Assembly: GCA_050013255.1 (NCBI GenBank)
Contig: JBEKFP010000001.1
Span: 1,312,001-1,376,000, forward strand
Length of the DNA stretch: 64,000 nucleotides
Source of the DNA: Candidatus Bathyarchaeia archaeon
GTDB taxonomy: Archaea > Thermoproteota > Bathyarchaeia > 40CM-2-53-6
Direction of reading: 5' to 3'
Part shown: in pieces, positions 18,546-45,185 of the stretch
Position numbering within the stretch: position 1 is the first letter of the stretch
How the letters are laid out: the number at the start of each line of letters is the position of its first letter
The notes under the pieces: model-generated
Seen by the model: only the letters and a program-made list of their open reading frames with translations
Databases searched by the model: none
What the model was told of the DNA's origin: nothing
Position numbers and translations under genes: made by a program

Positions 18546-18553
18546 ACATCAAG

Positions 18554-24110: not shown

Positions 24111-24468
24111 CGTAAACGTCCTAAAGGTCGATAAGGACTGCGTGGTACCGGAGAACTGGATTCAGGATTACATATCGGTAGTTTTGACCGTCTGCAAGTG
24201 GTTCGGAGTTTCGGTCATATCGATCGGGGCTTGCAAGAGTCGCATGAAGGGCCTTCACTTCTACATCGAAATAGCACCATCTGTCGAACCGGAAGTTGCC
24301 AACCGTCTTCAATGGCTCATAGGCGACGACTGCCAGCGCGTGGACTTCAACCGGGCCCGCATAGAATCAGGACTTGATTGTTGGAATAAATTGTTTGAAG
24401 TCGCCGGCAGAAGGTTGCGAACAATCTACGGAACCCAACAGCATTCGCTGAGAAACACCGCGTATTGA
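24103..24468 (+). CDS. Putative minimal AEP-superfamily primase-polymerase catalytic domain
   Basis: hhDxD (LKVDKD), SxxxGhH (SRMKGLHFY) and a distal Asp (GDD) in AEP motif order. Confidence 0.5.
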   Translation: MRNVNVLKVDKDCVVPENWIQDYISVVLTVCKWFGVSVISIGACKSRMKGLHFYIEIAPSVEPEVANRLQWLIGDDCQRVDFNRARIESGLDCWNKLFEVAGRRLRTIYGTQQHSLRNTAY

Positions 24469-24489
24469 CTGACAGGACTAGCGAGTCGT

Positions 24490-25611
24490 ATGAAGACTTC
24501 GAAGTCTCGTAACTCTCGTAACCTTAATGTCAAACCATCTAGACCTGGTGTGAACTTCAAGTTACGCAAATTACATGCCCCTGCGTCCAAGAAAAATTAC
24601 GCCGTCAGGCTTGAAGAGTATTACAACAAGAAGTTCGGGCAGGTAGTAACACCCGTCGCAATTCTGAAAACCCTCGCTGTAATCAGCTCCACCTTCAAGG
24701 GTAACGTTAAACTCTGGATTTTGAACGTCGCTCCCTCCCGGCATCTGAAAACCCAGACCACCCAAGAACAGGCTCAAATCTTTCCGAAGGGCAAGGTCGT
24801 TTACCTCGGATCAGACTTCACGATTCACGGACTCATACGAGACTATGATTCAGGACGCGAGATCAACAACAAGTGCCTTCTCATAAATGACATGACCCTG
24901 TTGCTCGCGAGTAAAGCAAAGCAGACGAAAGCTAGGTTGATCGATGCTTTATCGGAGCTTGCGAGTGAAGGAAAATACATCTATTCAGATTTCCAACACA
25001 CCTATGAAGTCAAGGCCCGCTTTGGTTTCATCGCGAACATTACTCCTCACTCGTTTCTGGTGAACCGGAACAACATGCTCGGCAACACCTTCACTGAACG
25101 CTGCCTAGTAGTGTACCATTGGTTAACAGATGCAGAGATGAGTGAAGGAAATCTTTCGCGGGCAAACCGGACGAGCATGCGAATAGAACGGTTCAAGCAG
25201 ACGATTACGGAAGCTGAGGTCAAAGTGACAGATGAGGACCTAGTGCGATTCGACGAGTACGCAAAGCGATGGCGAATCTTGGGCAGTTACTCAAGTTCAA
25301 GCAGCCTCTTCGACATGATTAAGTCGATGGCAACTGCGCATGCCATTCTAAGCGGTCGCAAGAAAATCACTCACAGCGTGTACAGATTCCTCGATATGAT
25401 TGAGCCTTACTTGAGGAACCCGAGCGAGAATGTGAAGTTGAAGATTCTTGAGCTTGCGCATCAGGGAAGGTCCATTCGCGATATTTGTAATATCCTTGAC
25501 AAGAAGTACGAGAAGTACCGCCCATTCGTTTCAAAGGTAATCTGGCAGTACCGCAAGAGAGGCGTGTTGTCCCCAAACACCTTCGAGAAAAAGGAACTTT
25601 TCGATAGATAG
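24490..25611 (+). CDS. AAA+/MCM-like ATPase domain with C-terminal HTH (divergent P-loop)
   Basis: VAPSRHLKT Walker-A-like, CLLIND Walker-B-like, SEGK, ERCL Arg-finger-like, GRSIRDIC HTH. Confidence 0.5.
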   Translation: MKTSKSRNSRNLNVKPSRPGVNFKLRKLHAPASKKNYAVRLEEYYNKKFGQVVTPVAILKTLAVISSTFKGNVKLWILNVAPSRHLKTQTTQEQAQIFPKGKVVYLGSDFTIHGLIRDYDSGREINNKCLLINDMTLLLASKAKQTKARLIDALSELASEGKYIYSDFQHTYEVKARFGFIANITPHSFLVNRNNMLGNTFTERCLVVYHWLTDAEMSEGNLSRANRTSMRIERFKQTITEAEVKVTDEDLVRFDEYAKRWRILGSYSSSSSLFDMIKSMATAHAILSGRKKITHSVYRFLDMIEPYLRNPSENVKLKILELAHQGRSIRDICNILDKKYEKYRPFVSKVIWQYRKRGVLSPNTFEKKELFDR

Positions 25612-25781
25612 AAAGGCGATAAGGAACTGAACGAAAATGTAGATTGAAAGTACCGTTGCGCGATATCCAACCAAATTCTGCGTAGTTACCCAATTTTCGC
25701 GCAATGAAATTTAATGTATCATTAATAGGACATAAACTTAAAGCGTGCTTTAGCATAACGTATAAGGAGAATTAAACCGAT

Positions 25782-26825
25782 ATGCGATATGTTCTAGACG
25801 TTCCAACAACGCTCGCCGATGAAATCAACAGACTGGTCGCGGCTGGCAAATACAAGACTCCACAAGACTTCATGCTACTTGGCATTCAAAATCAAGTGTA
25901 TCTCGAAACACAGTCAATCGAGTCGGAATCCGTTTCCGCCCAATCTCTAAGAGTGCACCCAAAACCGATCATGGGACCAGTTGATGCTGATGAATTTCTG
26001 TCCATGAACATCGATGGTGTGAAAACTGTTGAACTTAGCGAGCTGAAAAGGCAAGACGTTCTTTGGGGTCAGTACAACAGATTCTTGCCTGTCAAGATCG
26101 TAGTAAGAGTCGCGGCAAACCTTCTCAGAAGAAATGCGTCAGAGTATGTGTTGCTCTCCGATGTTCATGAAATAGCTGCGGCGACGGCTCGTCGCCTTGG
26201 CAAAGAAACTGCTAGAAATGATAAGCTGCTCGGACACAAAAGGGGCACAATAATATCCGCAGGATTGCCAATGGGCAAGGAGGACAAGTCGGCATCTCGA
26301 TTCAAGTATCAATTCGTTGGCTATGCTACTGCAGATAAGATGGAAGGTGCCGCACCTGTCCTGAAGTTTGTCGATATCACAAAGAAGGAGGGCACGGTTC
26401 TTCTAGGAATCACGGATTACGGGTTGAAGTTTGCTTCGTTTAGCAATCCTGTCATCGACAACCATGACTTCTCCTCTCCTATGTCTGAAGAGGAAGTGAA
26501 TTTTCTCCTCAATCACATTGCTCTCCAGGTCCCGGGCGAAGCAAGGCTCATCCACTTCATTCTTGATAGCGTGAACAAAGGACGCAAGACTCCTGAAGCA
26601 TTGAACGATAATATTAGGGCTGAATACGGGACGGTCTGGAAGGGCAAGAATGAACAAGCAACGATGCGATCTGGTGCAGTGAGCCGAATGAGTGAACTTG
26701 GTCTTCTCAAACGCGAGAAGGACGGAGTCAAGGTCACATATCTATTGACAGAGCGTGGGCGACAGTATCTGAATCGTCTTAAGGAGACCGGAGCTCCGAA
26801 GGTGGAGATCAAGCAATGGCCGTAA
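25782..26825 (+). CDS. DNA-binding protein with N-terminal ribbon-helix-helix and C-terminal wHTH
   Basis: MRYVLDVP..LVAAGKYKT RHH-like start; SRMSELGLL...YLLTERG. Confidence 0.6.
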   Translation: MRYVLDVPTTLADEINRLVAAGKYKTPQDFMLLGIQNQVYLETQSIESESVSAQSLRVHPKPIMGPVDADEFLSMNIDGVKTVELSELKRQDVLWGQYNRFLPVKIVVRVAANLLRRNASEYVLLSDVHEIAAATARRLGKETARNDKLLGHKRGTIISAGLPMGKEDKSASRFKYQFVGYATADKMEGAAPVLKFVDITKKEGTVLLGITDYGLKFASFSNPVIDNHDFSSPMSEEEVNFLLNHIALQVPGEARLIHFILDSVNKGRKTPEALNDNIRAEYGTVWKGKNEQATMRSGAVSRMSELGLLKREKDGVKVTYLLTERGRQYLNRLKETGAPKVEIKQWP

Positions 26826-27928
26826 GCCTGACTGCTTGTTCTTGCTCGTCCTCCTTTGACCTGATGATTTGTGCAAAGTGTGGAGGAACGCTATCAACCA
26901 ACACAATGCTTTCGAGACTTGACGATGGAACGCTACAATGGTTTTCTGAACTCGATTCAGACGGGCGACTTTCCTTTGCGCTTGCGAATTATGCGTCAAT
27001 CGATCGGCAAATCCGTCGAGGAATCCCAGCGACTACCATGCTTCAGACTCTGAAGGATACTATTTCCGGGCCAGGTGGCTTAACGGAAGAGATCGAAAAC
27101 AAGATCACCAAGAGATTCGAGGAGCTGCGTTGCGAGAACGAGAACTCCACAAAGCTTCTCAGGGAAATAGTAGTGGAGCAAGTGGGCGCAATCGTTGGAG
27201 AAATCAAGGGGTTAGTCGAACAGGGCAAATCCATTACAGACATCGAATCAAGGGTCAGGGAGGCGACGGGAGCTCTTCAGACGTATCTGACAGCTATTCG
27301 CATTCCTGCGCTTAAGGGGGAGGAGGGAGAGGTAAATGCGATTCGAGACCTTCAAGAGGCATTCATCGGACAGACATGTTTCAAGGTGGAGCCGATCGGT
27401 GGAGCTGATGCAACTGATGCAATCATCCACTTTCACCAAGCAGGAATCGAAATCGGCAGCTGCCTCGTGGAAGTGAAGTCCAGAAATAGTTGGAGCAATG
27501 ATTTTGTCGAGCAAGTCAGAGCCGATATGAAACGTTACGACGTTGCGCTGGCGATACTCGCTACCAACAAACTCCCAAAGTCCGCGAAAGGTAGAGGTTT
27601 TCGAGTCGACGGTGATTTCGGCCTGGTGGTTATCGCAAGCTCCGAGATGATCGTCCCAACCGTGAGCATGTATTACGAGATCTCTCTATCTACTCACAAT
27701 ATCCACAAGCACAACCTCGATCTAAAGTCAATAGCCGCCAATCGAGACCTGAGCTTCTATCTTAATGACAACATGAAGATACTCGCGATCTGCAAGCAAA
27801 TCTCCGATGCAACAGATGACTCAGCCCGCATAATCAAAGGGCATTTAGTGGACATCAGTTCGAGGCTACGAGAAAACAACGGTAAGATCGCATGCATACT
27901 GTCGGCCTCTACACGGGAGAGTCACTGA
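26816..27928 (+). CDS. Coiled-coil plus PD-(D/E)xK nuclease-like protein (RmuC/DUF2130-like)
   Basis: KGEEGE, D, VEVK motifs following a coiled coil. Confidence 0.65.
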   Translation: MAVSLTACSCSSSFDLMICAKCGGTLSTNTMLSRLDDGTLQWFSELDSDGRLSFALANYASIDRQIRRGIPATTMLQTLKDTISGPGGLTEEIENKITKRFEELRCENENSTKLLREIVVEQVGAIVGEIKGLVEQGKSITDIESRVREATGALQTYLTAIRIPALKGEEGEVNAIRDLQEAFIGQTCFKVEPIGGADATDAIIHFHQAGIEIGSCLVEVKSRNSWSNDFVEQVRADMKRYDVALAILATNKLPKSAKGRGFRVDGDFGLVVIASSEMIVPTVSMYYEISLSTHNIHKHNLDLKSIAANRDLSFYLNDNMKILAICKQISDATDDSARIIKGHLVDISSRLRENNGKIACILSASTRESH

Positions 27929-27932
27929 TCAA

Positions 27933-28304
27933 ATGAATCGGAAAACAACAGTAACAGGCAACGTTCCTAATGGTAACCCCTTTGAAAAGGGCCGTAGATT
28001 CGAATACAGGACAAGAAGTCACCTTTCGCGCCTCGGATGGTTTGTTATCAGGCAACCTCGCTCTGCATCACCCGATCTACTCGCTTTGAGAAAGGGCATT
28101 ATCTTGTTAGTCGAATGCAAAATCCGCGGATACATACCTCCGAAACAGCGCCGACGCATGATGCGATTGACGAAGAGCAACCCCGGCGCTAAAGCAGTGC
28201 TCGCAATGAAAAGCGAAAACGGACTTCTTTTTCGGGAATTATCACGTCGGTCATCAAGATATGATAAGCCGTTTGACCCCGATCCGGGGAAAACGTTAGC
28301 GTAA
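27933..28304 (+). CDS. Archaeal Holliday-junction-resolvase-like (Hjc) PD-(D/E)xK nuclease
   Basis: KGRRFE, GWFVIR, SPDLLA, VECK. Confidence 0.8.
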   Translation: MNRKTTVTGNVPNGNPFEKGRRFEYRTRSHLSRLGWFVIRQPRSASPDLLALRKGIILLVECKIRGYIPPKQRRRMMRLTKSNPGAKAVLAMKSENGLLFRELSRRSSRYDKPFDPDPGKTLA

Positions 28305-28321
28305 CTAGATGTGAAAAGGAA

Positions 28322-28999
28322 TTGGGACAGGCACCACCAGAAAGATCCGTGGCTAAGGAAGCTGCGCTTCGAAAAGTCTGTAAGCCTTTCGGATGGGAGA
28401 AGTACCAAAATATCGATTTAAACAGGTTAGCAGCTTACGCAATTCATATGCTCGCACGCAAAAGCGTCCTTGTGACTTTCGAGAATGTTGTTGTCGCGCT
28501 CTTTATCATGTTCCCTAGGAAATTCTGTTTGCCAGTCTACGAACACTACCCAGACTCAAGTCGGGTAAACCGAGCTCTTCTGCAATTGCGTCCCAAGTAT
28601 CGAAATTGGGCAACCGGGTCCCCGGTGAGGGGATTCAAGCTCACATCAACTGGAATTGCTATAGCTGAGGATACAGCGAAAGCTCTAACGAATCCTGCTC
28701 CCTTATCTAAGGAACCTCCCCGCATGATAAAGCCCCGAACGTTCTCTCCACAACTTGAGATTGAAAATCGGGTGCTTAATCGTGAAATCTTTTCTAAGTA
28801 CGACAAGAATCAAGTAGACCAAATAGATGGTATGGAAGTTCTCGAGCTCCTTCGAGCGGTGCCTCACACACCTCCCAACATACTGAGAGGTCATCTCCGT
28901 GAACTTGAGAACATAGCCAAGGAAGCGCACAGCACAACAGCACTGGAGTTTCTCAGGTTCTTGCGACACCAATTCTCGTCTCTATTCGAGGAGAGTTGA
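28322..28999 (+). CDS. Hypothetical protein with wHTH-like region
   Basis: YPDSSRVNRAL...FKLTSTG; operonic spacing. Confidence 0.6.
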   Translation: MGQAPPERSVAKEAALRKVCKPFGWEKYQNIDLNRLAAYAIHMLARKSVLVTFENVVVALFIMFPRKFCLPVYEHYPDSSRVNRALLQLRPKYRNWATGSPVRGFKLTSTGIAIAEDTAKALTNPAPLSKEPPRMIKPRTFSPQLEIENRVLNREIFSKYDKNQVDQIDGMEVLELLRAVPHTPPNILRGHLRELENIAKEAHSTTALEFLRFLRHQFSSLFEES

Positions 29000-29002
29000 A
29001 AG

Positions 29003-31255
29003 ATGGTAGAAATTGAAGTTAAGGACAGTGCAAGATTCATTCGGAGGCACATGAACAAGGCTCTACGACGCAGCTATCTGAAGGCACTCACTGAACCCAT
29101 CACAAATAGTGACGACAGTTATGGAAGGATCGAGAAGTCATCCCCATCTGATTTGTCACCCAAAATCATTCGAGTATATGCCTCCCCGAGAAAGAAGCAA
29201 TTCGATGTTCTAGATCTCGCTGAGGGGATTTCAAACGAAGAAATGATCAATCTATTCAGAGAATACGGTGAAGAAAAAAGAACCCACGAAATGGGAGGAC
29301 GAGGTATCTTCGGACAAGGATTGTCTGATGTACTATTTAGTAGAGAAGAGGGGGGATGGGTTCACTCAGTTAAAGATGAAGTCTATTCGGTAGCTCAGTT
29401 CAAATGGAAGAAAAAGAAAGAGAACGGAGTTTTGAAAGAACGTCGCATAATAAGAGTGCCCGGGGCAACTCGCGCGGACAGAGGAGCTAGAGAGCGTTTG
29501 AGACTACCAGAGCATAGTGGTACAGTCGTGTCATTCAAGTTCACTGAGGCTCCCTTCCCAGCTAAGGAAATACTCATTCAACGCCTATCGCAGTTTCACA
29601 TGCTTCGACTGATAAACTCGAACTCGCGTCGCAAAATCATCGTGCATTATGCTGATGAAAATGAAGAGGAAGAGCATGAGATTCGATATGAGTTTCCGCA
29701 GGGGAAGCTCATCGGGAATCTTGCAACAACCATGAAATACGATGGCGTTGACATCTCAATTGGAGGGGAGCTGTATAGATCCGACGAGCCTCTCCTTCAA
29801 AGAGAAGCGGGTGAGGATAGGCAGGGAGGGTTACTTGTCTTTGATGAAGAAGCTAGCGTTCTCGACTTGACACTCTTTGGCTATGATGAAGACCCTTTGG
29901 CGGTGCGGTTCTGGGGAAGATTGAGCCTAAAGGGCGCCCGAACCCTAGTCAGAAAGAAACTCCAAGAGCAGGACGAAATCCTTACTGAGACTCGAGATGG
30001 CTTTGTTAAGACTCACGGATTCTACGCCAAGCTAAAGCCCATCGTAGATGAGTGGTTGAAACCCTTTATCGAAGCAGAGAGAGCGAGAATCAGTCAGCAA
30101 GAATCTGCCCTCACCGAGAAGACGCACCAGGAGCATCGCAAAGCGTTCCAGATGCTTAGCGAACTGAATAGAGAGATCAACCAAGATGTTACCATCTTGT
30201 CACCTGGCACAGGAGAGGGTGGCACTGAGGAGAAACCAAAAAACGGTATAGAATTCGCCAATGAAAATTTGACGCTGCGGAAAGGCGTGAGGTATTCTGT
30301 CCAACTTCGTGTTGATGCTCGTGTGATATCTCCTGGAACGATCATCAAAATAACATCTCAAAATCCGAGCCTAAAAGTCAAACCTCGTAAACATATCGTG
30401 ACTCCACTTGCTGCTTTGCCCGATGACGAAATTGACAGAAAACGCATCATACTCTCTTGCGACTCCGTTGGAGTCAATACAAAGGTCCAGGCCAAGGCAA
30501 AGAGCCATCGAGCGGAACTAACTGCCCTCGTGGTGGAAATACCACGTTCGGAGGAGTTACCTAAGATAGTCACATTGGAACAACCCTTGGAGTTTCGACC
30601 GAGCTCGGCTCGCAGAAAGCCAGGTGCGTCCGGAACACTGCATCTGTTCATTGATAGAGAGCGGATTCCCAAAGCATCTTCAGTTCTGTTCAGTTGCAGC
30701 AATGACCGGATCAGGTTGCAATCAACAACGGTCTCCGTTTCTGCAGGAAGTGTGATCTCTGATAAAGTATCAAGAATCGATATGAACTTCGTCGGTTACA
30801 GCGAGGGGCAGACTGGCGTTGTTAAAGCGGCATGCGGTGAATGCTTTGCTGAAGCAACTGTGAAGATTACCTCGGCAGAAGGATTTGGTGATCTGTTCGT
30901 CGATTGGGATTATAGAGAAATTCACGCTGTCTTCCAAGCATATTTCGAGAAAGAGACTGGACTTGTGATTCTTAACTCAACACATCCGGTCAACAAACAG
31001 TATTTCGGAACGGATAAACCACAGGCTCATCTTGCAGTGGAAAATCAGCCACATTGTCAAATGCTCCTAGCTACCTTGATCCTCGATGTGTGTCTATGGT
31101 ACATCTACAGCGAAGCTTACAAGAACAACAGACTCGAACTTACAGACTGGTGGGAAATACAAAGATACATCGAAGAGGGAAAGCACAGGCTTGGAAAGGA
31201 ATTCATGTCTAGGTTTCTGAAACAGCCAGTTTTTGCGCAGGCTCACGAAGCCTAA
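29003..31255 (+). CDS. GHKL (HATPase_c/MORC-like) ATPase with C-terminal beta-rich domains
   Basis: EPITNSDD (N box), DLAEGI (G1), GRGIFGQG (G2), SGT. Confidence 0.8.
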   Translation: MVEIEVKDSARFIRRHMNKALRRSYLKALTEPITNSDDSYGRIEKSSPSDLSPKIIRVYASPRKKQFDVLDLAEGISNEEMINLFREYGEEKRTHEMGGRGIFGQGLSDVLFSREEGGWVHSVKDEVYSVAQFKWKKKKENGVLKERRIIRVPGATRADRGARERLRLPEHSGTVVSFKFTEAPFPAKEILIQRLSQFHMLRLINSNSRRKIIVHYADENEEEEHEIRYEFPQGKLIGNLATTMKYDGVDISIGGELYRSDEPLLQREAGEDRQGGLLVFDEEASVLDLTLFGYDEDPLAVRFWGRLSLKGARTLVRKKLQEQDEILTETRDGFVKTHGFYAKLKPIVDEWLKPFIEAERARISQQESALTEKTHQEHRKAFQMLSELNREINQDVTILSPGTGEGGTEEKPKNGIEFANENLTLRKGVRYSVQLRVDARVISPGTIIKITSQNPSLKVKPRKHIVTPLAALPDDEIDRKRIILSCDSVGVNTKVQAKAKSHRAELTALVVEIPRSEELPKIVTLEQPLEFRPSSARRKPGASGTLHLFIDRERIPKASSVLFSCSNDRIRLQSTTVSVSAGSVISDKVSRIDMNFVGYSEGQTGVVKAACGECFAEATVKITSAEGFGDLFVDWDYREIHAVFQAYFEKETGLVILNSTHPVNKQYFGTDKPQAHLAVENQPHCQMLLATLILDVCLWYIYSEAYKNNRLELTDWWEIQRYIEEGKHRLGKEFMSRFLKQPVFAQAHEA

Positions 31256-32588
31256 TTGTCGAAACTATTACCGGGTAAGACAGTTTCTTCTCTCGCTGCA
31301 ACCAGTTTTGCTCTGAAAACATGTCAGTAACGGCTATCTTGCGATCGTAGGAGATGTTTCTCTTTGAGTAGATCCACATTGTACGACTTTCTCCCTTCAA
31401 GATTGATCTGAGTTCACGGAGTGTAACGACCTTCACCAGCGTTTCAATACCATATTTCGACAGGGGGGGTTTACTCAGTTGTTTTCTAGCTTTAGTCTCC
31501 ATCAACCTTCTGCTTCTTTTCGAGGATTCGCTCCCTACTATCAAGTGGATGTCCTCTGCAGTTATCTTGTAACCTGGTGCCTTTGGCGAGAGGGGGCGCT
31601 CAACAGCTACCGCGAATCTGGTATTCGACATCGCATATTTGCCCATTGATCTCACCAGCATACGCGGTAACTTGATCAACCTGAGTTTTCGTATGTTTGA
31701 TTCGAAATTCGCGGTTTCCTTTGCGTCTATTTGTCGGAGTTCAGATCTTACTTCTCGTCTAATTGTCTTGTAGAAATTTCTGACGTACTTCCTTTGGACC
31801 TCGAATCCAGTAGACATACGACCCATACACTCCGCAGTTGCAAGAACTATCCCGGAACCGGCAAATGGATCTAGAACGATGTCATCAGGATCCGTGGTAA
31901 GTAGCAGCATTCTGCGAACCAACTCTACGGGAAATGGACAGAGATGGTAATGATTCAGCTTATTGTGGCGCCAGGATCCTTGAACTGGAATGCCGATTTT
32001 CCACACATCTGTGGGAGCAACTCCTTTTGGTGAATATCGCTCAGGATACTTCACCCACCAGCTACGAAAGTTGTCCGGGTCGGAGTCCCTAACCGCATCA
32101 GTTCGGAGTTCAAGATGGTTTTTTGCAAAAAGAAGAACATACTCGAATACATTTCTAAGTCCCGCCGTCGACCAAGGCAAATTCTTGTCTTTTTGCCAAA
32201 TGACAATATCCTTCAGTTTCCACCCTACATCTTTCATTCTACGAGCCAAGTCGAATGGCAGAGGGACGACTTCGCTATCTACCATGAACGTATTGCAAAC
32301 TAGCCAAAACGATCCACTCTCAGAAGTGAGGGAATATACTAGCTTGAAAATTCCGGTTAAAGTGTCCAGATATTTCTCGTACGTTTTCTCGTGTCCAATT
32401 TGGCGGTCGGCTTCATAATCCTTGAGCTTGTAGTATGGTGGAGAGGTTATGGTTGTGGACAGTCCAGGCCATTCAGGATCATTCAAGGCACGTTGAGCGA
32501 TAGCTTGGAGACCGTGTCTCGCATCCTGATGATGAAAGCCGAAAACTGTCCGGAATTTCGAATGAAGAGCCGATGTCCCGGCTCTCAT
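31209..32588 (-). CDS. Site-specific DNA methyltransferase (N4-C/N6-A, beta-type motif order)
   Basis: TSPPY precedes DPFAGSG; HLCPFP. Confidence 0.92.
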   Translation of the reverse strand: MRAGTSALHSKFRTVFGFHHQDARHGLQAIAQRALNDPEWPGLSTTITSPPYYKLKDYEADRQIGHEKTYEKYLDTLTGIFKLVYSLTSESGSFWLVCNTFMVDSEVVPLPFDLARRMKDVGWKLKDIVIWQKDKNLPWSTAGLRNVFEYVLLFAKNHLELRTDAVRDSDPDNFRSWWVKYPERYSPKGVAPTDVWKIGIPVQGSWRHNKLNHYHLCPFPVELVRRMLLLTTDPDDIVLDPFAGSGIVLATAECMGRMSTGFEVQRKYVRNFYKTIRREVRSELRQIDAKETANFESNIRKLRLIKLPRMLVRSMGKYAMSNTRFAVAVERPLSPKAPGYKITAEDIHLIVGSESSKRSRRLMETKARKQLSKPPLSKYGIETLVKVVTLRELRSILKGESRTMWIYSKRNISYDRKIAVTDMFSEQNWLQREKKLSYPVIVSTIRLREPAQKLAVSET

Positions 32589-34291
32589 TTCTTCTTGCCG
32601 CCTGATAAGTGTGCGAGTTTGATTTTATTGTGCTGGTTTAGTACATCGATGATCCTGTTAGCCAATCCTCTGAACGCTTGCCATCCGGTGCCGTACTTCG
32701 CGATCATGGAACTTGTGAATGACAGTGATGCGACGGGTTTCAAGTATTTCTCTAGGTCACTTAGGATCTTCTCCCTGTCTTCTTTTGATGATCCTAAGAT
32801 CTGCGTTAAGACCAAGAGCAACGCGTTTACTGCAACACTTTTCGTCACTCCGTATTTCTTCGAATCATCCCACGCGCCAGGTCTAGCATCTTCCAAGTGT
32901 TGTCTTACCAGAGTAAAATAATGCGAAAGCAGATTGACTTGCTTTTGTAGGCTCTTCACATTCGATGGATCGTCCACTGACTTGTTTACGTCGAACTTCG
33001 CATAGGTATAGAGCGGCCCAACATAGTGTATTTCGCCCGTCGTTTTGTCAACATGATTTTTCAAGAGTTCAACAGCCAAGGCGAACTTGGCAAATCCCGC
33101 CAAGGTAATCGGTCTGTCTTTTTCAATTTCAAGTACTCTGATCTTATTTTTCCACGGATCGCGAGAACTCAATGACTTAACCACAAGCGAAGGCCAAGTC
33201 AGATAGTGTTTGAGATCCTTAGTCAGACTCAGTAGGTCACAGAGGAGGGTTGGATCTATTCCCACTTGATTGTAGTTAATATCGATGAATGATTTCGCTT
33301 GGCTTTCACGACCGATGTTCTTCAATCCCACTACGATAAGATCGAATTTCTCTTGGGGCTGCGGCGAGTCAGGTGGTGGTTCCGAGAACTTCGTTCGTGT
33401 GAAGCCATATAGTCGATGCTGACCATCTACGATCCATGCAGAACAATATTTCTTCGGAATTTGGAGGATGCCTTCGAGTGGATTTGAGGCGCTCTTTGTG
33501 AATATGACTTCGCTGGCGATTTCGTCATCAAAAGCGATGAGTATTGCATTTGGGATGAGTGCACGACCAGCTAGAAAACGCCCAATCTCTTCTATGCGAC
33601 GCTCTCGAATCATTCTTTGATATGCAAATTCTGGCTTGAAACTTCGTCGAAAAACATAGGAAATAGGCAAAAGCTGATGAGGCGCAAGAGTAAATATGTA
33701 CATTTCTTGGTTGTTACCGATTCCGGGCTGTCTAACCATTATCGCCGGCCTGGGAACTGAGCCCCCCTCTTCCTCTCTTTCGATTTCGAAGTCTTTGAAG
33801 ACGGCATACTTAGTCCACTTACCGAGAGCTTTCACGATGTGACCATAGTAATCGAGCGCTGGTCCATTCAGAACTTGTACTTCACGATCCGCGGCATATT
33901 TCATCATTTCCTCATTAGGTGCATAGTTGTCTAGTGCGATAACCATCTTCACCCTCGTTGTCTTATCAAGGACGGTGGCGGTGAACCTCCCGTCTAGACT
34001 GGTTTTGATCGTAAGTGTTCCCTTTTCTCTGACGATTTCATCACGCCAATGACACCATTTGTCCACCAGGTTTTGGAACTTGACGTTGGCCGCTGTTGTG
34101 CAGTACGTGATCACAAGAACCTCTTGATGCCAAGCACAGACGTCCAGGTCAGTTTCTGAACTGGTCGTTGTCAAAATCTTGACTGCTCTGTCAGTGAGGA
34201 AGTCAGATCTCTCAAAAATTGATTTGACTCTATTTATGAGGGGAAGATCTTTCTGTCTGTCGCCGTGTGAGTCAGCAGGCATATCTTCCAT
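32585..34291 (-). CDS. DGQHR-domain (DndB-like) protein with N-terminal nuclease-like domain
   Basis: YQRM, IPNAILI, IVDGQHRL, FIDIN; start uncertain (34282-34372). Confidence 0.85.
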   Translation of the reverse strand: MEDMPADSHGDRQKDLPLINRVKSIFERSDFLTDRAVKILTTTSSETDLDVCAWHQEVLVITYCTTAANVKFQNLVDKWCHWRDEIVREKGTLTIKTSLDGRFTATVLDKTTRVKMVIALDNYAPNEEMMKYAADREVQVLNGPALDYYGHIVKALGKWTKYAVFKDFEIEREEEGGSVPRPAIMVRQPGIGNNQEMYIFTLAPHQLLPISYVFRRSFKPEFAYQRMIRERRIEEIGRFLAGRALIPNAILIAFDDEIASEVIFTKSASNPLEGILQIPKKYCSAWIVDGQHRLYGFTRTKFSEPPPDSPQPQEKFDLIVVGLKNIGRESQAKSFIDINYNQVGIDPTLLCDLLSLTKDLKHYLTWPSLVVKSLSSRDPWKNKIRVLEIEKDRPITLAGFAKFALAVELLKNHVDKTTGEIHYVGPLYTYAKFDVNKSVDDPSNVKSLQKQVNLLSHYFTLVRQHLEDARPGAWDDSKKYGVTKSVAVNALLLVLTQILGSSKEDREKILSDLEKYLKPVASLSFTSSMIAKYGTGWQAFRGLANRIIDVLNQHNKIKLAHLSGGKKK

Positions 34292-34423
34292 CCGCCAAGT
34301 GCCCTCTATTTGATTCTTATTGTTATGCGACTGTGGCCTGATTAGGGGTTGCGCAACGCGTATTCTTCGCATCTGTGGAACAAATAAGATTCAGAACTGA
34401 AACAGCTTCCTTCCGATCATCCA

Positions 34424-34555
34424 ACACATGCGGCCGGGTGAGGACAGTGATCCTTGATGGGCCGGATTCCGGGAGTCCGGCTGGATGGATTTGTTAGGGG
34501 GCACCTCCCCTAACAGCAAACACCTACACCAACCGTTTCAAAGTGTGTGTGTGTG
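34424..34555 (-). repeat. Right terminal inverted repeat
   Basis: Reverse complement matches 18273-18405; the 27 bp (CA run + tttgaaacggttgg) match perfectly. Confidence 0.92.
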
Positions 34556-34624
34556 GGTCTAATGGTGCGAGCGCTCGAATTTGAACCGGTTCATATATAC
34601 CGGTAAATTGGGGTCAGAATCCCC
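34556..34624 (-). repeat. Right TSD (34556-34569) plus tRNA-3'-like leader repeat (copy 2)
   Basis: Minus strand reads ggttcaaat-tcgagcgctc-gcacca-ttagacc. Confidence 0.92.
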
Positions 34625-34719
34625 TGCCCCGCACCACGTACGAATCCCAGACATTTCAGAAGTTTTGAGTAGTATCAGTCTTGGTCTCTATTCTTTGATC
34701 ATCCGCTGGGGTCTTGATT

Positions 34720-35457
34720 TTATGGTTCTTGAAGCATATGTTGTTTATTGCCAAACCGGTTATGGTGCATGAAGTCCTTTACGTCGCGGCGCACTCGCAG
34801 ATAGTCAGCTAGCGCAGAGCGGGGGTAGCCCACTCGGGCGGCAAAGGCAATCTTCATGTATTCAGGAATATTGAGAATCTTTTTCACCTCTTTCTCGACG
34901 GGGATTCCGCTGAAGACGCTCAGTATATGAAAGCCAATCCCCAGGGATTGAGCCATGAGCCACATGTTCTCCATAACGCAGCCGAGACTCATAATCCCCA
35001 AGACATCTCCCTCCGAAGCAGGCGCCCTTTTCCTGGAGTCATAGATCACTATCAAAAGCGTTGGGCTGCCCTGAATGCGTTCCTGCAGGGGCCACGGGCC
35101 CTCACGAACAGCTTCATCCAACCTAGCAGGATCACTCCATGACGGGGGGAACATGGCGGCGAGAATTCCAACCTTCTTTTGGAGGAACTCCTTCTTCGAG
35201 AACGAGAGTTGTTCATAGTTTTCCCTGATGAACTCCTCTGATACCTGAGACTTTATGTGCCCTATTTCTTTCAGAATTTCCTCGTCGTCGATGACGAGAA
35301 CTTCGAAGTTCTGCATGTTGTGGGCCGTGGGCGCCCAGCGCCCGGCTTCAAGAATTTGCCTCAAATCCTTTTTGGTCACAGAACGCTCCCGATCAAAGAG
35401 TCCCCTCGACGAGTGCCTTTCCTCGATGAGCTTCAGGAGATTAGTCATGATGACCAT
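34720..35457 (-). CDS. Nitroreductase family protein
   Basis: ERHSSR, APTAHNMQ, ENMWLMAQSLGIG, VGYP. Confidence 0.92.
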   Translation of the reverse strand: MVIMTNLLKLIEERHSSRGLFDRERSVTKKDLRQILEAGRWAPTAHNMQNFEVLVIDDEEILKEIGHIKSQVSEEFIRENYEQLSFSKKEFLQKKVGILAAMFPPSWSDPARLDEAVREGPWPLQERIQGSPTLLIVIYDSRKRAPASEGDVLGIMSLGCVMENMWLMAQSLGIGFHILSVFSGIPVEKEVKKILNIPEYMKIAFAARVGYPRSALADYLRVRRDVKDFMHHNRFGNKQHMLQEP

Positions 35458-35588
35458 CCCACCTTCAGAACCGCCAGAAAATGAACGTTTCCGACAAGTA
35501 TCACAGGTCCTTCAAGCGCTAGAATCCGGAGAGACTGTACCTACAATAATACCGTCTACTAGGAATTCTTACACCAACAATGGGAGCC

Positions 35589-35630
35589 TATATGTACCGG
35601 TAAATTGGGGTCGGCTGGTGCACACACGAA
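35589..35630 (-). repeat. Hybrid site: truncated leader repeat fused to a target core and (CA)n
   Basis: tatatgtaccggtaaattgg-ggtcggctggtgca-cacac. Confidence 0.7.
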
Positions 35631-35660
35631 ATGACATCCATGTCTTGATTTTGGGTTAAG

Positions 35661-36974
35661 TTACATCGCAACGTAATGGACTCGCCTTAGCTTCTCACCT
35701 TCTGGGCGCCACGTAAGCTGCTTGTCTACGCGCAACTGCATGAAGTTAACGACATTATCAACGACCTTGTTCAGCCTGCTTATGGCTAGGGAGTTGTTCC
35801 TAAGCTTCTTCAAATCTTCTTTCGTGTTCTCGCTGAGGCTTGAGAGGTTGTACCAGATCCCGAAGGGCGGGAGGATGTAACCCAAGTTCTGTAGGACCAC
35901 GAACACGTCCCAGGCCACTTTGTAAGCGCCGTCCTCGTGGCCATTCACGAATATGCCGACGGGCCGGCCCGCCCAGTCAACATGTTCAACTTTCAGCCCA
36001 ATATCCTGCAGGTTCGTCAACCGATCCAAGAATACCTTAAGCCGGCTGTTCATCCCCTCCCAATTGATCGGCGTAACCACAATCAACGAGCGGGCACGAA
36101 CGAGTTTCGGGTAGATCTTACGCATGTCATCATGCATATTGTTGCAGGGAAACCTGCAGAAATCATCTTCCAGGGAATAGCAAGCCCAGTTATGCTCAAT
36201 CTTATGTTTCGCCAAGTCCACCCAATCATACGTCACCGCCGGGTGCGCCTCTCTAAGCCTCTCGATGATTCTTGGGGCTATGAAGCCGCTGACAATATGT
36301 TGCGGGTGGGCGCTGGCGCTTATGATGAGCACGTCGATAGGAGGCTGCGCGGCGATGTCACGCCAGAACTCAATTCGCCGATCAAGAAACTCGCTCTTCT
36401 GCACGCTTTTCGTTAAGTATTCAGTTACTGCGTCTTCCTCAATCGGGTACGTCGCCTTATGGGTCAAGAGTTGGGCCGCGAGCTTCTCTTTGGATTTGAT
36501 TAATTCCCAAGGCGCCTTACACTTTGCACATAACTTGGGCGGCAACCGGCCGGTGTACTCATCCATGCAGATCAAGCATTTCCAAACAGAATTGTCATTC
36601 GCCTGTTCCTCCGGCGGTTCCAGCTTGAACGCAAATTCGTCCGCTACGGGTTTGCGTGGGGAGGTTGCTTGTCGGGAGATTAGTATTTCGTCGCCTTCCA
36701 CTTTCACCGCGTAACTTTCCACTTGCTCAGGCGCACCCTTAGGAGCCTTCCCTGTCTTCGGGTCGTACCTGTACCCATGCCAGGGGCAAACAACGTTTCC
36801 ATCCTTGTCGAAGGCACCGTCGATTAACGGCCCACCCATATGCGCGCAAACGTTCGAAATAGCAAAGTAACCATTATCAATCTGAAAAACCGCAACCGAC
36901 TTTCCTTCAACCTGGCCTAGGTATCGGTTATTTGAGAAATCCTTCTTCGAACAAACACGGACAAACGATTCCAT
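35661..36974 (-). CDS. Rieske [2Fe-2S] + rubredoxin-like + flavodoxin-like FMN reductase fusion
   Basis: CAH...CPWH; CLIC...CAKC; TPINWEGMNSRLKVFLDRL. Confidence 0.85.
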   Translation of the reverse strand: MESFVRVCSKKDFSNNRYLGQVEGKSVAVFQIDNGYFAISNVCAHMGGPLIDGAFDKDGNVVCPWHGYRYDPKTGKAPKGAPEQVESYAVKVEGDEILISRQATSPRKPVADEFAFKLEPPEEQANDNSVWKCLICMDEYTGRLPPKLCAKCKAPWELIKSKEKLAAQLLTHKATYPIEEDAVTEYLTKSVQKSEFLDRRIEFWRDIAAQPPIDVLIISASAHPQHIVSGFIAPRIIERLREAHPAVTYDWVDLAKHKIEHNWACYSLEDDFCRFPCNNMHDDMRKIYPKLVRARSLIVVTPINWEGMNSRLKVFLDRLTNLQDIGLKVEHVDWAGRPVGIFVNGHEDGAYKVAWDVFVVLQNLGYILPPFGIWYNLSSLSENTKEDLKKLRNNSLAISRLNKVVDNVVNFMQLRVDKQLTWRPEGEKLRRVHYVAM

Positions 36975-37075
36975 AACATTCCATGAGCGTGAGACGTATG
37001 AAAACCTAGGCCTACTCAGCCTCAATCAACGGAGAGTAAATAAGAGAAATTCGCCATCGAGACAAATGAACAAAC

Positions 37076-37471
37076 ATGACAACCGATGAGGAGATCTTAG
37101 AAGAATTAAGGAAGATTCGAGAAGCACTTTCACCGAAACCTACTCCGCCGCCGCCAAAGCCCAAAGGTATGTGGGCCGAGTTCATAGAATTCATCGGCAA
37201 AGCGGGGGTAATCGGGTTGGCTGTAGGCTTCATAATGGGTACTTACATTGGCAAAGTGGTCTCGGCACTTGTTCAGGACATTATAATGCCCATCCCCGGC
37301 GCGCTGTTGCCGGGAGGCGATTGGAGAAAGGCGGTATTCACCATCCCAATCGGACAGGGGATGAATTTTGCTGTGGGTGACTTTGTGGGCGTTATGTTTG
37401 ACTTTCTCATTGTCGCGGTTGTCATCTTCTTCATCGCCAGATACGCTATGAGAGCTATGGAAAAAAAGTAA
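37076..37471 (+). CDS. mscL: Large-conductance mechanosensitive channel
   Basis: EFIEFI..VIGLAVGFIMG..VSALVQDIIMP, GDF..DFLIVA. Confidence 0.9.
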   Translation: MTTDEEILEELRKIREALSPKPTPPPPKPKGMWAEFIEFIGKAGVIGLAVGFIMGTYIGKVVSALVQDIIMPIPGALLPGGDWRKAVFTIPIGQGMNFAVGDFVGVMFDFLIVAVVIFFIARYAMRAMEKK

Positions 37472-40914: not shown

Positions 40915-40990
40915 GGGTTCTGACCCCAATTTACCGGTACATATAACTCGGTTCAAATTTGCTTGCCCGCACCAGCTGACCCACACACAC
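40915..40990 (+). repeat. Leader repeat (copy 3, inverted) + core cgcaccagctgacc (40968-40981) + (CA)n
   Basis: ttctgaccccaatttaccggtacatataactc-ggttcaaat-ttgcttgccc-gcacca. Confidence 0.92.
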
Positions 40991-43396
40991 ATCAAACGAA
41001 CGACGTTCCGATTTTGAACGGCCGCGCCAGTGATATTACAGACTAAGCGAGGCTTCTATTTTGTTAGGCCACACTGTTTCCTGAGCTTCTTCACCAGTTC
41101 CAGGTATCGGGGGTCGGCCCTTGCCCTGGCGAAGAGGGGCGAGTACGTCACCGCTGAAACAACTAATGCACGGGCTTCGAGGGCCGTGTTCAAGTACTCG
41201 AAGAAGGAGTCGAGGTCTCCGAGAGCATGGTAGACGTACGCGATGAAGTTGAAGCCTACTGGACCCGGTTTGGCGTCCTCAATCTTCTTGATCGCGAGGA
41301 GCGCCTTCTCGCTGTCGCCCTCCATGGCCGCGATGAACCCGCCCATCCAGGTGACCCGAGGATTGGTGGGATCGAGCTTCTCCAATTTCGCAAGGAGCTC
41401 CTTAGCCTTCTCTAGGTCCCCTTTGGCTAGGTAGTACTCCGTCATACCCCTGTACGCGAACGCCGGCGCCAGCTGCTCACCCTTCTTCCAGAACTCCAAC
41501 GCCTCCTGCTCCCTCCCAGTCCAGAGATATGCCTCCCCGACACGGTAGATGAAGTCGGGTCTGATGGGGTCCAGTCGGTAGGCTGTCTCGATCTGTCCAA
41601 CCATCTCCCCCGGATCTCCTTTGAGTGCCGCCAGCTCGAACAGGTTCCAGTAGGGGTCTGGAAGGTTAGGGTTGAGTTCCAGCGCCCTTCTGGCCTCCGC
41701 CTCTGAACCGACGACGTCGTCCTCGTTGAAGAGCATGGTCGAGAGCGACGAGTGGGCCTCCGGAAGGTTCGGGTCGAGGTTGAGGGCGCGCTCCAGTAGT
41801 CGCCTCACAGTCGCGACGGAGATGTCAACGGGCTCACTTCCTTTGTCAGAAAGTAATTGGTGACATTCTGCCTCGCCCACGTACGCTCTCGCGAATCTGG
41901 GATCCAGCTCGATGGCCTTCTCGAAGAGAGCTATGGCCTGCCTAAGTGAAGCCTCGGTCTGCTCCCTCAACAGTTCCCTGCCCCGCAGGAAGCAGGTGTA
42001 CGCCTCAGTGTTCTCGGTAGGCTTCTTCTCCAGGGTTCTCTTCTCAGAGTCGAGGAGCTGGGTCTTGAGTTCTCCGGCGACCTTCTCAGCTATCTCGCTT
42101 TGGACGGCGAAGATGTCGTCCAGATTCTTGTCGTAGTGGGAAGACCAGAGGTGTTCTTCTGTTCCGGCGTTGATCAGCTGGACTGTGACCCTGATTCGGT
42201 TGCCTGCTTTCCTCACGCTGCCTTCTATCAGAGCCCCGATATTCAGTTCCTTTCCTACTTCCGAGGCTCCCTTCTGAGAGCCCTTGTACTTCATCACCGA
42301 CGTTCGAGCTATGACCCTCAGACTCTTCACTTGGGCAAGCCTGTCAATCAGCTCCTCAGTCATGCCGTCCGCGAAGTACCCATCTTCAGGGTTGGAACTC
42401 AGGTTTGCAAAAGGCAGAACTGCAATCCGCCTCTTGTCCAGGCCCAATCCGGTAGCCTCCTGTCTCTCGGCGGCTAACCCTTCAAGTGGAAACTCTTTCT
42501 CCGCGGTTTCGATTCCATGCATCCACTTGATTCGTAGGTACTTCCGCGTTCCGCCTTCAGATTCCTTCTCGAAGATCTCAACGTTGCCGTCGAAAAGGTC
42601 CACGACTGCCTGAACGTCCTCGGCTGAATGCATGTACGGGTTGAGGACGGATAGGGTTGTGATACTCTTCGACCGCAGCCGTTCAAGAAGTTCCGTAAGC
42701 CATTTCCGTGTCTGCAACGCCTTATGGCGAAGCAGAATGTCCGAGAGGATGTTGATAACCAAACGTTTCGGTTGAGTTGAAGCGATAACTTCATTGATTT
42801 GTAGGTTTACGTCCGTTAGGTTCTCGATTCCCTTCCCTGGGATGATGTTTCTTGCTGGTGAGACGGGTTTATCGCTGCAAACCAACGACCTGACATTCTT
42901 ACCCATATTTTGCGTAATCGTTTCGGCTGAGGAAATCGTGCGGCATATCAGTAGGGCCTCTTCCTTTGAGGCTCTGAGGAAGTTTGCAACGAGAAGCGGA
43001 ACCTCATCACTTGCAGCGGCATTCAAAACGATGGAAGAAGCTGCGAGAAAGCCGCCTTGAAGCGCTTCATCCAGCCTACCGTAACCAGTCGAAACCTTCG
43101 TGCTCACAGAACTGGCTGAGACGCCTTCAGAAGTCATATAACTCGCCATCAGTCACGACCTGCCAGATATACTAACTCCCGATAAGAGTTCTGCTTCACA
43201 TCCGCCTCCGCATTCTACACCTTGACGAAGCTTCCCCAGATAGTTACACAAGGATTGATGTTTGCTGGTGCTTTGGAAACGGCGGTCCTATCACAGACGG
43301 ACTGTCGATTCTAACCATTGTTCTCTTGTGTGTGGTATCACTGGTGCGTCCGTTCAAAATCGGAACGTCGTTCGTCTAGTTGTGTGTGTGTGTGCG
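40982..43396. mobile_element. Non-autonomous single-gene cassette (2.4 kb)
   Basis: ~55-bp inverted ends (acgaacgacgttccgattttgaacgg at 40996-41021 and its reverse complement at 43350-43375); identical 14-bp flanking direct repeats. Confidence 0.8.
41056..43149 (-). CDS. Fusion of degenerate KaiC-like domain, TolB-N-like domain (as in adenylate-cyclase/kinase fusions) and TPR repeats
   Basis: STGYGRLD..GGF; IAVLPFANLS...YFADGMTEELI, EGSVRKAGNRIRVTVQLI; TPR repeats. Confidence 0.85.
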   Translation of the reverse strand: MASYMTSEGVSASSVSTKVSTGYGRLDEALQGGFLAASSIVLNAAASDEVPLLVANFLRASKEEALLICRTISSAETITQNMGKNVRSLVCSDKPVSPARNIIPGKGIENLTDVNLQINEVIASTQPKRLVINILSDILLRHKALQTRKWLTELLERLRSKSITTLSVLNPYMHSAEDVQAVVDLFDGNVEIFEKESEGGTRKYLRIKWMHGIETAEKEFPLEGLAAERQEATGLGLDKRRIAVLPFANLSSNPEDGYFADGMTEELIDRLAQVKSLRVIARTSVMKYKGSQKGASEVGKELNIGALIEGSVRKAGNRIRVTVQLINAGTEEHLWSSHYDKNLDDIFAVQSEIAEKVAGELKTQLLDSEKRTLEKKPTENTEAYTCFLRGRELLREQTEASLRQAIALFEKAIELDPRFARAYVGEAECHQLLSDKGSEPVDISVATVRRLLERALNLDPNLPEAHSSLSTMLFNEDDVVGSEAEARRALELNPNLPDPYWNLFELAALKGDPGEMVGQIETAYRLDPIRPDFIYRVGEAYLWTGREQEALEFWKKGEQLAPAFAYRGMTEYYLAKGDLEKAKELLAKLEKLDPTNPRVTWMGGFIAAMEGDSEKALLAIKKIEDAKPGPVGFNFIAYVYHALGDLDSFFEYLNTALEARALVVSAVTYSPLFARARADPRYLELVKKLRKQCGLTK

Positions 43397-43483
43397 CGCA
43401 CCAGCTGACCACACACACACTTTTCCAAACGACGACGTACGACGGTTCAAATTACGACGCCCGCACCACCAGTACCACACACA
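43327..43483. repeat. Cluster of three junction/target cores (43335-48 minus, 43397-410 plus, 43462-75 plus) joined by two linker modules
   Basis: Read directly from the sequence. Confidence 0.92.
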
Positions 43484-43486
43484 TTT

Positions 43487-44224
43487 CTACTGAACTATCG
43501 TTACTTCGCCGGTCTCTGAAACGTTCAGTCGTTGCCATCGTGAGTCGAATTTCTTACCGCGCATTCTTCTGATCCGCACAAGTTGCGTGATCTCTCCCTC
43601 TTTATCTTCACATTTGAAGTCGATAATTCCATCGTTAATCGTCTCAAACTGAGAGCGAAACGTTTCCGACACTGTTCCCTTCAGGATTGAATAAATGGTT
43701 ACGTTCTGAAGGGGTCTTGAGAAAGGAATATGTCTCGTTCGCCAAAAATCCAGCACATTAATCTCGGCATTGTATCTTGTCATAATGGCAGTGTTATCAT
43801 CGACATGTACCCACCACTTTTCGCCCTCAGGAATTCCCTTCTCTCTTCCCTTCTTGACGAATTGGGCGTGGTTGATGCTTAGGTCAGGAATCTTCAGTGA
43901 TTTGGCGACCGGATCCTCCTGCTCAACGGGATTTAGTCCCCCCATCTGCACAGTAAGACTGTCCACGATCCGGAACAAACCGTCATCTTGAAGCTTGGCA
44001 AGGTCTAATCCGAATTTTCTCAGATCGTGTTCTATATCGGCCGGAGGGTGCTGGAATGTATGGTACAATGCCTTGTGGTCGTTCCTTAGTGCCTGGGCTG
44101 TAATCGTTAGCGAAGCTTCGTACCATGCGGAGTCTGGCTCGAATTCTACCAGTAAATTGCTGCCAAATTCAACGCCATCTGGAAGAAGTCGTTCAAAGAT
44201 GGGAATGAACAGATTTGTTAGCAA
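43487..44224 (-). CDS. KaiC/RAD55-like protein with degenerate Walker A
   Basis: EFEPDSAW, DGIIDF, RIRRMRG; start placed at TTG 44224 because the ORF-track extension runs through the repeats. Confidence 0.8.
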   Translation of the reverse strand: MLTNLFIPIFERLLPDGVEFGSNLLVEFEPDSAWYEASLTITAQALRNDHKALYHTFQHPPADIEHDLRKFGLDLAKLQDDGLFRIVDSLTVQMGGLNPVEQEDPVAKSLKIPDLSINHAQFVKKGREKGIPEGEKWWVHVDDNTAIMTRYNAEINVLDFWRTRHIPFSRPLQNVTIYSILKGTVSETFRSQFETINDGIIDFKCEDKEGEITQLVRIRRMRGKKFDSRWQRLNVSETGEVTIVQ

Positions 44225-44292
44225 ATCCCTTGTCCAATATCTGATAACTCCGAATAGCTTGAATTTCTGTCTTCCGATTACGCGCCCCAGTT

Positions 44293-44383
44293 GTGTGTGC
44301 CTACAATGGTGCGAGCATCGAAATTTGAACCGTCGTCCGTCGTCTTTAGAAAGTGTGTGTGGTATGCTGGTGCGCACACACAC
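44293..44383 (-). repeat. Two cores (44300-13, 44361-74) joined by a linker module
   Basis: gtgtgtg-cctacaatggtgcg-agcatcgaaatttgaaccgtcgtccgtcgtctttagaaa-gtgtgtgt-ggtatgctggtgcg-cacacacac. Confidence 0.92.
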
Positions 44384-44400
44384 AGAAAATCCTGAGGCCT

Positions 44401-45102: not shown

Positions 45103-45153
45103 GTTCGGAGCACACAGTGGTCATGTGTCGAGTTTACAGATTTGGCGTTTTCT

Positions 45154-45185
45154 GTGTGTGTGCGCACCAGCTGACCCACACACAC
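45154..45185 (+). repeat. Junction site (TG)n - cgcaccagctgacc (45163-76) - (CA)n
   Basis: Core identical to 40968-81 and 43397-410. Confidence 0.95.

Follow-up and report, generated by a model that had tools for sequence, protein, structure and literature searches.

The integrase that inserts spacers into CRISPR arrays presumably descends from casposases. Casposons, as defined by Krupovic et al. 2014, reportedly combine a Cas1 integrase, terminal inverted repeats, a target duplication of 14-15 bp, and a family B polymerase. To our knowledge, no more than two or three casposases have had their target determinants mapped by mutagenesis. As to the organisms considered here, the literature searched contained no paper treating casposons in Bathyarchaeia, with one general review of archaeal dark matter naming casposon and Bathyarchaeota in passing.

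The A. boonei casposase needs TCAAATC at positions -15 to -9 along with two border bases, with most of the duplicated segment being dispensable (PMC6614799). In M. mazei, duplications are 14 bp in length and start with CGCA, i.e., the last four bases of tRNA-Leu, and integration is crippled by mutations in the four bases that precede CGCA, as it is by those in a block further upstream (PMC6977970, PMC4779613). The casposon sites of M. mazei consist of tRNA-Leu, the intergenic IR1, and the partial, tRNA-Leu-like tLEU2 (PMC4779613, PMC6977970, PMC10359463). Tandem casposons, as well, are known from Methanosarcina (PMC4779613, PMC10359463).

The DNA analyzed here, referred to as ‘the window’, is a stretch of 64,000 nucleotides (contig 1, 1312001-1376000) from the 2.46-Mb genome of a Candidatus Bathyarchaeia archaeon. 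Found repeatedly within it is a short motif, the ‘box’, which precedes GCACCA at a fixed distance, that is, GGTTCAAAT-N10-GCACCA. We view this box, with a probability of roughly 0.8, as a landing site for casposon-type, Cas1-driven transposons, one which imitates the 3' end of tRNA-Gly but keeps only those positions that a casposase reads. That it is a target looking like a tRNA end is well supported, both by the anatomy of the site and by the agreement of that anatomy with the published biochemistry.

The box as an observation is confirmed. With up to two mismatches allowed, the pattern occurs seven times in the window versus 0.15 times expected from shuffles, none of which gave seven. All six copies located by the original prediction were found at their places, with four being exact (25-nt spans at 34563-34587 (-), 40950-40974 (+), 43444-43468 (+), and 44307-44331 (-)), one possessing a single mismatch (AGTTCAAAT; 18475-18499 (+)), and one degenerate (TGTTCAGAT...GCATCA; 11327-11351 (-)). 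Additional, decayed copies are seen at 12069-12093 (+), 17393-17417 (-), and 19509-19533 (+). Genome-wide there are 52 matches at no more than one mismatch, as compared with none for a reversed control, and once real tRNA ends are subtracted the box family consists of about 43 copies. Across the genus the box is present in 19 of 22 genomes (reversed control, zero), and the Cas1 family of the window in 10 of those 22. Among 18 more distant relatives searched, only four have matches to the box pattern (10 matches, with the one shown being a real tRNA 3' end), and the Cas1 was not found in the 18 at E<=1e-30. Box family and Cas1 family are, that is, essentially confined to one genus. Several box-rich genomes show no intact Cas1 of the window family.

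All 43 copies have C as the base immediately preceding GCACCA, and the unit thus consists of an 18-bp ‘leader’, comprising the box and nine further bases, and then a 14-bp ‘core’ starting with CGCACCA. The box correspondingly is exactly 18 bp upstream of the duplicated 14-bp segment, which begins with CGCA. As profiled over these 43 copies, positions -19 to -9 read C-G-G-T-T-C-A-A-A-T-T, -8 to -5 are almost without information, -4 to -1 read Y-G-C-Y, +1 to +7 read CGCACCA, and +8 to +14 are only weakly conserved, with conservation within the two search boxes partly reflecting how the copies were retrieved. Both of the resulting blocks (-19 to -9 and -4 to +7) persist in 34 sites which were picked by core plus (CA)n with the box ignored. 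The ten bases separating the two boxes had originally been described as varying, which is the case for -8 to -5, but not for -9, which is T in 36 of the 43 copies, nor for -4 to -1.

In the box family, TCAAAT falls at -15 to -10 and CGCA at +1 to +4, and it is with these positions that the published work can be compared. They match determinants mapped for casposases (PMC6614799, PMC6977970, PMC4779613), which by analogy supports viewing the two boxes as Cas1-recognition boxes, and the Cas1 encoded in the window, by the same analogy, probably recognizes them. The further proposal, that selection retained only two Cas1 boxes, holds to the extent that two blocks are found at mapped casposase determinants. 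It misses, however, a third conserved block, at -4 to -1. Going by the conservation profile, what is conserved may well be under selection for recognition.

It had also been claimed that cores not preceded by a (TG)n arm instead follow a box at fixed spacing. This holds for about 26 of the 34 arm-less sites of this genome, sites chosen by core plus (CA)n alone, with the box ignored. For nine other species, 150 listed sites were selected solely by CGCACCA-N7-CACACAC and their classes counted by hand: 63 of the 150 have an element end upstream ((TG)n, G-run, GGC, or CGT types), 66 have the box at exact spacing (66 of 87 arm-less sites) with three more shifted or decayed, 5-6 have a tRNA-Gly-like end, three have a reversed box variant, and nine are other. 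From these counts, about 86% of arm-less cores are preceded by a T-loop-like box. A second conserved type of leader before core plus (CA)n was seen in two species, a shortened tRNA-Gly-like end (TGAATCATGGTTCT.GGCGGCC), at genome contig 2, 287309 (-), and in a relative at G007:C53:20428-20469.

One element of the window is 16.3 kb in length and spans 18273-34555. It possesses (CA)n ends, and its terminal inverted repeats, 18273-18405 versus 34424-34555, align over about 131 bp at about 80% identity. On both sides it is bordered by the 14-bp core, repeated perfectly and in direct orientation, with the box found on the right only, outside of this repeat. The element encodes a casposase-like, Cas1-family integrase of 407 aa with a C-terminal extension (21417-22640 (-); PF01867, E=7e-49). 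The best solved relative of this protein is the casposase of M. mazei, 6OPM (E=4e-74; residues 4-402, C-terminal region included), versus E=6e-24 for the nearest CRISPR Cas1, and the two align with identical residues at the Cas1 motifs surrounding E, H, and E. Close relatives of the window Cas1 are from Bathyarchaeia genomes of peat and soil.

A Cas1 gene, terminal inverted repeats, and a 14-15 bp target duplication are thus all to be found, as in casposons, but a family B polymerase is not. No PolB domain was seen among 17 ORFs of at least 120 aa scanned in this element, nor among seven such ORFs in a second Cas1 element, on contig 3, and the three PF00136 matches of the genome all are on contig 2, away from both. 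Absent a family B polymerase among the scanned ORFs, these elements lack one defining feature of casposons. Both Cas1 elements have defense-like cargo in place of a polymerase. In the window element (19656-34372), cargo includes an AIPR protein, an N6/N4 DNA methylase, and a DndB-like protein along with a 750-aa HATPase_c_3 protein and an Hjc-like resolvase, and in the contig 3 element a TIR-domain protein is encoded beside Cas1 (about 232400-233160; L020:11896-12660).

However much they resemble tRNA 3' ends, the boxes are not parts of tRNA genes. ARAGORN calls no tRNA in the window and neither does Rfam at gathering score, which is the outcome that had been expected of a tRNA finder, and across 11000-47000 the Rfam tRNA model has no match even at E<=10. 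T-stem pairs number 1-4 of 5 in the box family, or approximately chance, whereas genuine tRNA 3' ends from this genome have all five, and after the loop those genuine ends read ATCC versus ATT for the box family. The T-stem pairing and the rest of the cloverleaf consequently are missing, just as originally claimed. For half of the copies, moreover, a (CA)n element end is found 20-45 nt upstream, which leaves no space for a tRNA body. The best 7-nt acceptor complement within the upstream 60 nt matches at 4-6 of 7 positions, a measure which fails to separate real, intron-bearing tRNAs from the box family. Host tRNA genes are intron-rich and encode their CCA end. Over the whole genome ARAGORN calls only seven tRNAs without its intron mode and 30 with it, several of the calls having 1-2-kb ‘introns’ with one common 3' half, as if the tRNA genes were split or interrupted more than once. 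As a separate matter, the window also contains a TPP riboswitch (59218-59332 (+); Rfam RF00059, 71 bits).

Might the boxes instead be tRNA genes which have decayed, or att-site remnants left behind by tyrosine-integrase elements, which duplicate tRNA 3' ends? There are indeed tRNA remains in the vicinity of boxes: a partial tRNA-Gly 3' end just upstream of the contig 3 box and, at 34609-34635 (+), the decayed 3' fragment of another tRNA, as read from the sequence, with its T-stem GGGG/CCCC kept and lying back to back with a leader of the window. Such an origin nonetheless is very improbable given the failure of the tRNA model, the chance-level T-stem pairing, and the element ends which stand where tRNA bodies should be. 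In addition, no tyrosine recombinase was found among the element genes scanned, and the copies have in common various features that are not those of tRNAs (T at -9, C at -19, and an ACGAC-rich linker), which makes of them one repeat family rather than a series of independent decays. The decayed fragment just mentioned overlaps a further observation. A nitroreductase gene at 34593-35612 of the window is flanked by 23-nt direct repeats (ATAT[A/G]TACCGGTAAATTGGGGTC), and this segment is 96% identical in a relative (G004), where it is next to an intact tRNA 3' end, the window counterpart of which is the fragment at 34609-34635.

Though the box family is not located at the 3' ends of functional tRNAs, one locus of this genome is so located and also is occupied. 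Three tRNA-Gly genes (anticodons GCC, UCC, and CCC, as read by eye) end in CGGCCGCACCA, and that for tRNA-Gly(GCC) has in addition a TTCAAAT loop. The latter gene (contig 1, 1132371-1132501) is occupied by a relic of a Cas1-element terminal repeat. That is, 14 bp past its CGCA is a stretch which is about 75% identical to the start of the terminal repeat of the Cas1 element. Its 14-mer has no second copy in the genome, and the insertion thus is a one-ended relic. The question of whether a host tRNA ending in GCACCA carries such inserts, as raised with the original prediction, hence has a positive answer. Similarly, this tRNA-Gly-type end, with core plus (CA)n after it, is found in at least three relatives (G011, G019, G021, and G022, with one base differing in G022). 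A further candidate family of elements at real tRNA ends, GTATAACATATGCTAGAC, follows two such ends but is found also at five non-tRNA places, and was not counted.

Three elements with unrelated ends adjoin a box in this genome. Each has a perfect or near-perfect 14-bp duplication starting from CGCA, each has the box on one side only and outside of the duplication, and two of the three encode Cas1. Besides the Cas1 element of the window, there is a second Cas1 element of about 11 kb (contig 3, ~228079-239043) with CGCCCCCGCC ends, a perfect 14-bp duplication, a box at the same distance, and a Cas1 which is 60% identical to that of the window. A 5.2-kb element (contig 1, 716105-721311; L019:4106-9312) has inverted ends of about 70 bp (GGGGATATTACATA), a 13/14 duplication, and a box. 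This third element possesses no Cas1, instead encoding a MauJ-like protein along with a 1134-aa protein without Pfam match, and a second copy of a GGGGATATTACATA-type end adjoins a box at contig 1, 254421. A fourth type of end, CACCCCCCC, is found in another Bathyarchaeia genome (L014), there with a Cas1 fragment and the same arrangement of the box. As four unrelated end types meet the same box at the same spacing, the box should be a target rather than a part of any one element.

From a different perspective, the box could belong, in a subterminal position, to the terminal repeats of the elements themselves, e.g., as a transposase binding site, rather than being a target, with likeness to a T-loop reflecting merely what the protein binds. 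Of the 43 boxes, 22 in fact are found 20-45 nt inside of a (CA)n end, and so these could double as transposase end-binding sites. Furthermore, the 98-bp inverted repeats of the unit 43386-44384 take in both box and core, and the element 40982-43396 has a related but reversed box (GATTTTGAAC) beside a core-like segment at both of its ends. The three duplication-bounded elements, however, have their box on only one side and outside of the duplication, four unrelated kinds of ends share both box and spacing, and a real tRNA-Gly end serves in the same manner. It is unlikely, then, that the boxes are solely parts of terminal repeats, though being a target and being part of a terminal repeat are not mutually exclusive. 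At the ends of the unit 40982-43396 (40982-41036 and 43327-43394), a reversed box-like motif (CCGATTTTGAACGG) is seen directly before the core-like segment, and this is found also in a relative (G019).

That the box might be a regulatory or RNA element unrelated to transposition (be it a TTCAAATT box resembling an archaeal promoter, a small RNA, or a terminator) we consider to be exceedingly improbable. The box is intergenic, and a T-run often comes after the (CA)n stretch, as such a role could imply. The orientation of neighboring genes relative to the box is inconsistent, though, no Rfam family matches, and neither exact 14-bp duplications nor arrays are to be expected of a regulatory element.

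Arrays, by contrast with what a regulatory role would predict, are seen in the window, with two boxes each heading an array of three identical 14-bp cores. Array 1 is found on the minus strand and consists of a leader, a core, the Cas1 element, a core, a 6.2-kb composite unit, and a core. Its leader (34570-34587 (-)) is an exact match which is outside of the Cas1 element and directly upstream of the duplicated core. The first core (CGCACCATTAGACC; 34556-34569 (-)) is identical to the second (18259-18272 (-)) and to the third (12023-12036 (-)), with these latter two bounding the composite, non-autonomous unit (12037-18258), which has junctions at 12850-12885 and 17442-17473. Array 2, on the plus strand, has an exactly matching leader at 40950-40967 (+), after which come a core and the (CA)n end of an element. 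Its three identical cores (CGCACCAGCTGACC; 40968-40981 (+), 43397-43410, and 45163-45176) separate three units, and a variant core (46541-46554) closes the array. Identical cores are as expected from repeated insertion at the leader-proximal side.

Additional leaders are found within the inserted units themselves. One leader with core (43444-43475 (+)), part of the unit 43411-45162, starts 24 nt inward of a (CA)n end and has an inverted partner at 44300-44331 (-), which is part of the 98-bp composite inverted repeat. Another, with one mismatch (18475-18506 (+)), is in the Cas1 element, just inside of its left terminal repeat. Within the 6.2-kb unit 12037-18258 are both a leader with a decayed core (17386-17417 (-)) and a decayed leader plus core (GGTTCAATT ... 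GCACGA; 12069-12100 (+)), and there is a decayed leader plus core as well at 11320-11351 (-). Five of eight window copies consequently lie inside units that are bounded by identical cores, and a module in which a 24-nt linker joins (CA)n to the box is shared, without a difference over 53 bp, between 43412-43464 and the reverse complement of 17397-17449, 26 kb apart. The original description of these sites as portable is thereby supported, as boxes inside of units are landing sites that travel with mobile units. Judging from these sequences, the sites would be spreading along with the elements.

Not everything in the window is so simply arranged. Cores flanking some units are inverted rather than direct (17450-17463; 43462-43475 versus 44300-44313), and the 98-bp composite inverted repeats of the unit 43386-44384 (43386-43483 and 44292-44384) comprise junction, linker, box, and core. 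Neither the inverted cores nor the composite repeat are explained by simple cut-and-paste with duplication. Tandem modules of 60-65 bp were considered as possible mini-insertions, i.e., miniature elements, but this was ruled out as their flanking cores differ at +8 to +14. Five KaiC-family ATPase paralogues (13724-14470, 17501-18202, 41056-43149, 43487-44383, and 44401-45102), one of them fused to TPR repeats, are distributed one to a unit, with cores and (CA)n/(TG)n ends bordering these units.

Comparison with relatives and with public reads supplied no example of a site both with and without its element. For the 5.2-kb element of contig 1, an empty site was sought using its unique left flank (L019:2900-4106), for which none of the genus's 22 other genomes offers a homologue at the DNA level, and by DNA similarity no empty/filled pair was found for any pseudo-site. 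The right flank of the Cas1 element (34500-37100, as searched in relatives) is itself a mosaic, with the nitroreductase segment found in other contexts in G004 and G011, and this flank therefore is unusable as a fixed chromosomal anchor. In public reads, the region is present in 24 peat or wetland runs, and in four peat/wetland runs the element consists of one identical, 16,293-base unitig of approximately the same depth as its flanks. Public contigs break at the (CA)n ends, and where joints span the element, their sides all amount to no more than 20-31 bases and are within repeats.

How insertion at a box would proceed can be outlined by reference to the A. boonei and M. mazei enzymes. The sequence GGTTCAAAT(T), eight bases, and then CGCACCA would mimic, in order, the T-loop, 3' acceptor strand, discriminator A, and CCA of tRNA-Gly. 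The integrase would bind to TCAAAT of the leader (-15 to -10) as well as to CGCA (+1 to +4), following which the border between leader and core would receive one element end and a position 14 bp downstream the other, with the 14-bp core then being duplicated through gap repair. Both the leader and the leader-proximal core would thereby be restored, leaving the site reusable, and from reuse would follow arrays of leader, core, element, core, element, core in which the cores are identical. As many boxes are tens of bases inside of element ends, each insertion could also bring new landing sites along with it, which would explain the approximately 40 copies per genome as well as the nested mosaics.

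If so, then these dozens of diverged copies amount to a natural experiment, one in which the tRNA has been lost but for its T-loop box, the four bases that precede the cut, and CGCA(CCA). The resulting in vivo specificity profile agrees with casposase biochemistry. It may be seen here, too, how a site-specific transposon can escape reliance on a single tRNA locus, that is, by copying a stripped-down target into its own ends. Arrays of leader, repeat, and insert, in turn, bear directly on the possible origin of leader and repeats prior to CRISPR. More tentatively, and we would sooner bet against this than for it, the genus may run a form of Cas1-driven gene capture which employs minimal leaders resembling tRNA-Gly, arrays of identical 14-bp repeats, and, between these repeats, kilobase cassettes that themselves carry new leaders. 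Cassettes would include defense genes, KaiC-like ATPases, and transporters, with landing pads multiplying along with this cargo. Were that true, then the system would be a still-extant form, intermediate between casposon insertion sites and CRISPR arrays, that works in the manner of an integron.

Among the described systems, what is seen here may be compared with the casposon of A. boonei. In both cases the leader motif TCAAAT(C) corresponds to the tRNA T-loop at -15 to -9, the duplicated segment is 14-15 bp and starts in the last bases of the tRNA, and specificity resides in the leader and first duplicated bases, with the rest of the duplication only loosely constrained. Unlike with A. boonei, most sites here are outside of tRNA genes, and in place of a single site a genome has about 40. 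At -9 there is mostly T instead of the C of the A. boonei motif, the border is CG rather than CC, and the elements are without PolB.

With M. mazei are shared a 14-bp duplication starting from CGCA, bases just upstream of CGCA (conserved here and which matter there), tandem elements with common cores, and use of a partly tRNA-like site, and it is to that enzyme that the Cas1 here is closest among solved structures. M. mazei, though, has few sites, none of which are reported inside of element ends, as compared with the dispersed family here, and its elements have PolB whereas those here do not. Here, in addition, CCA is encoded and is within the duplication.

There is also a likeness, if by analogy, to the leader-repeat arrays of CRISPR, i.e., a leader followed by identical direct repeats, with a Cas1-family integrase which would renew the leader-proximal side, and array 2, like many arrays of CRISPR, ends in a variant repeat. 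Repeats here nevertheless are 14 bp, and the inserts are elements of 0.8-16 kb with their own inverted ends and genes. With no tandem arrays of the CRISPR sort in the window, no Cas2 among the neighbors, and no short spacers, these are not CRISPR arrays. Integron cassette arrays similarly have accessory genes that are parted by short recombination sites and are inserted beside a fixed entry site. They differ in using a tyrosine recombinase in place of a Cas1-type enzyme, and from what is seen here, where cassettes have inverted ends and target duplications and there is no attC-like structure. Partially tRNA-like casposon sites thus have precedent, in tLEU2 and IR1 of M. mazei, with what is new here being the scale on which such sites occur, their stripped-down form, and their carriage within the ends of elements.
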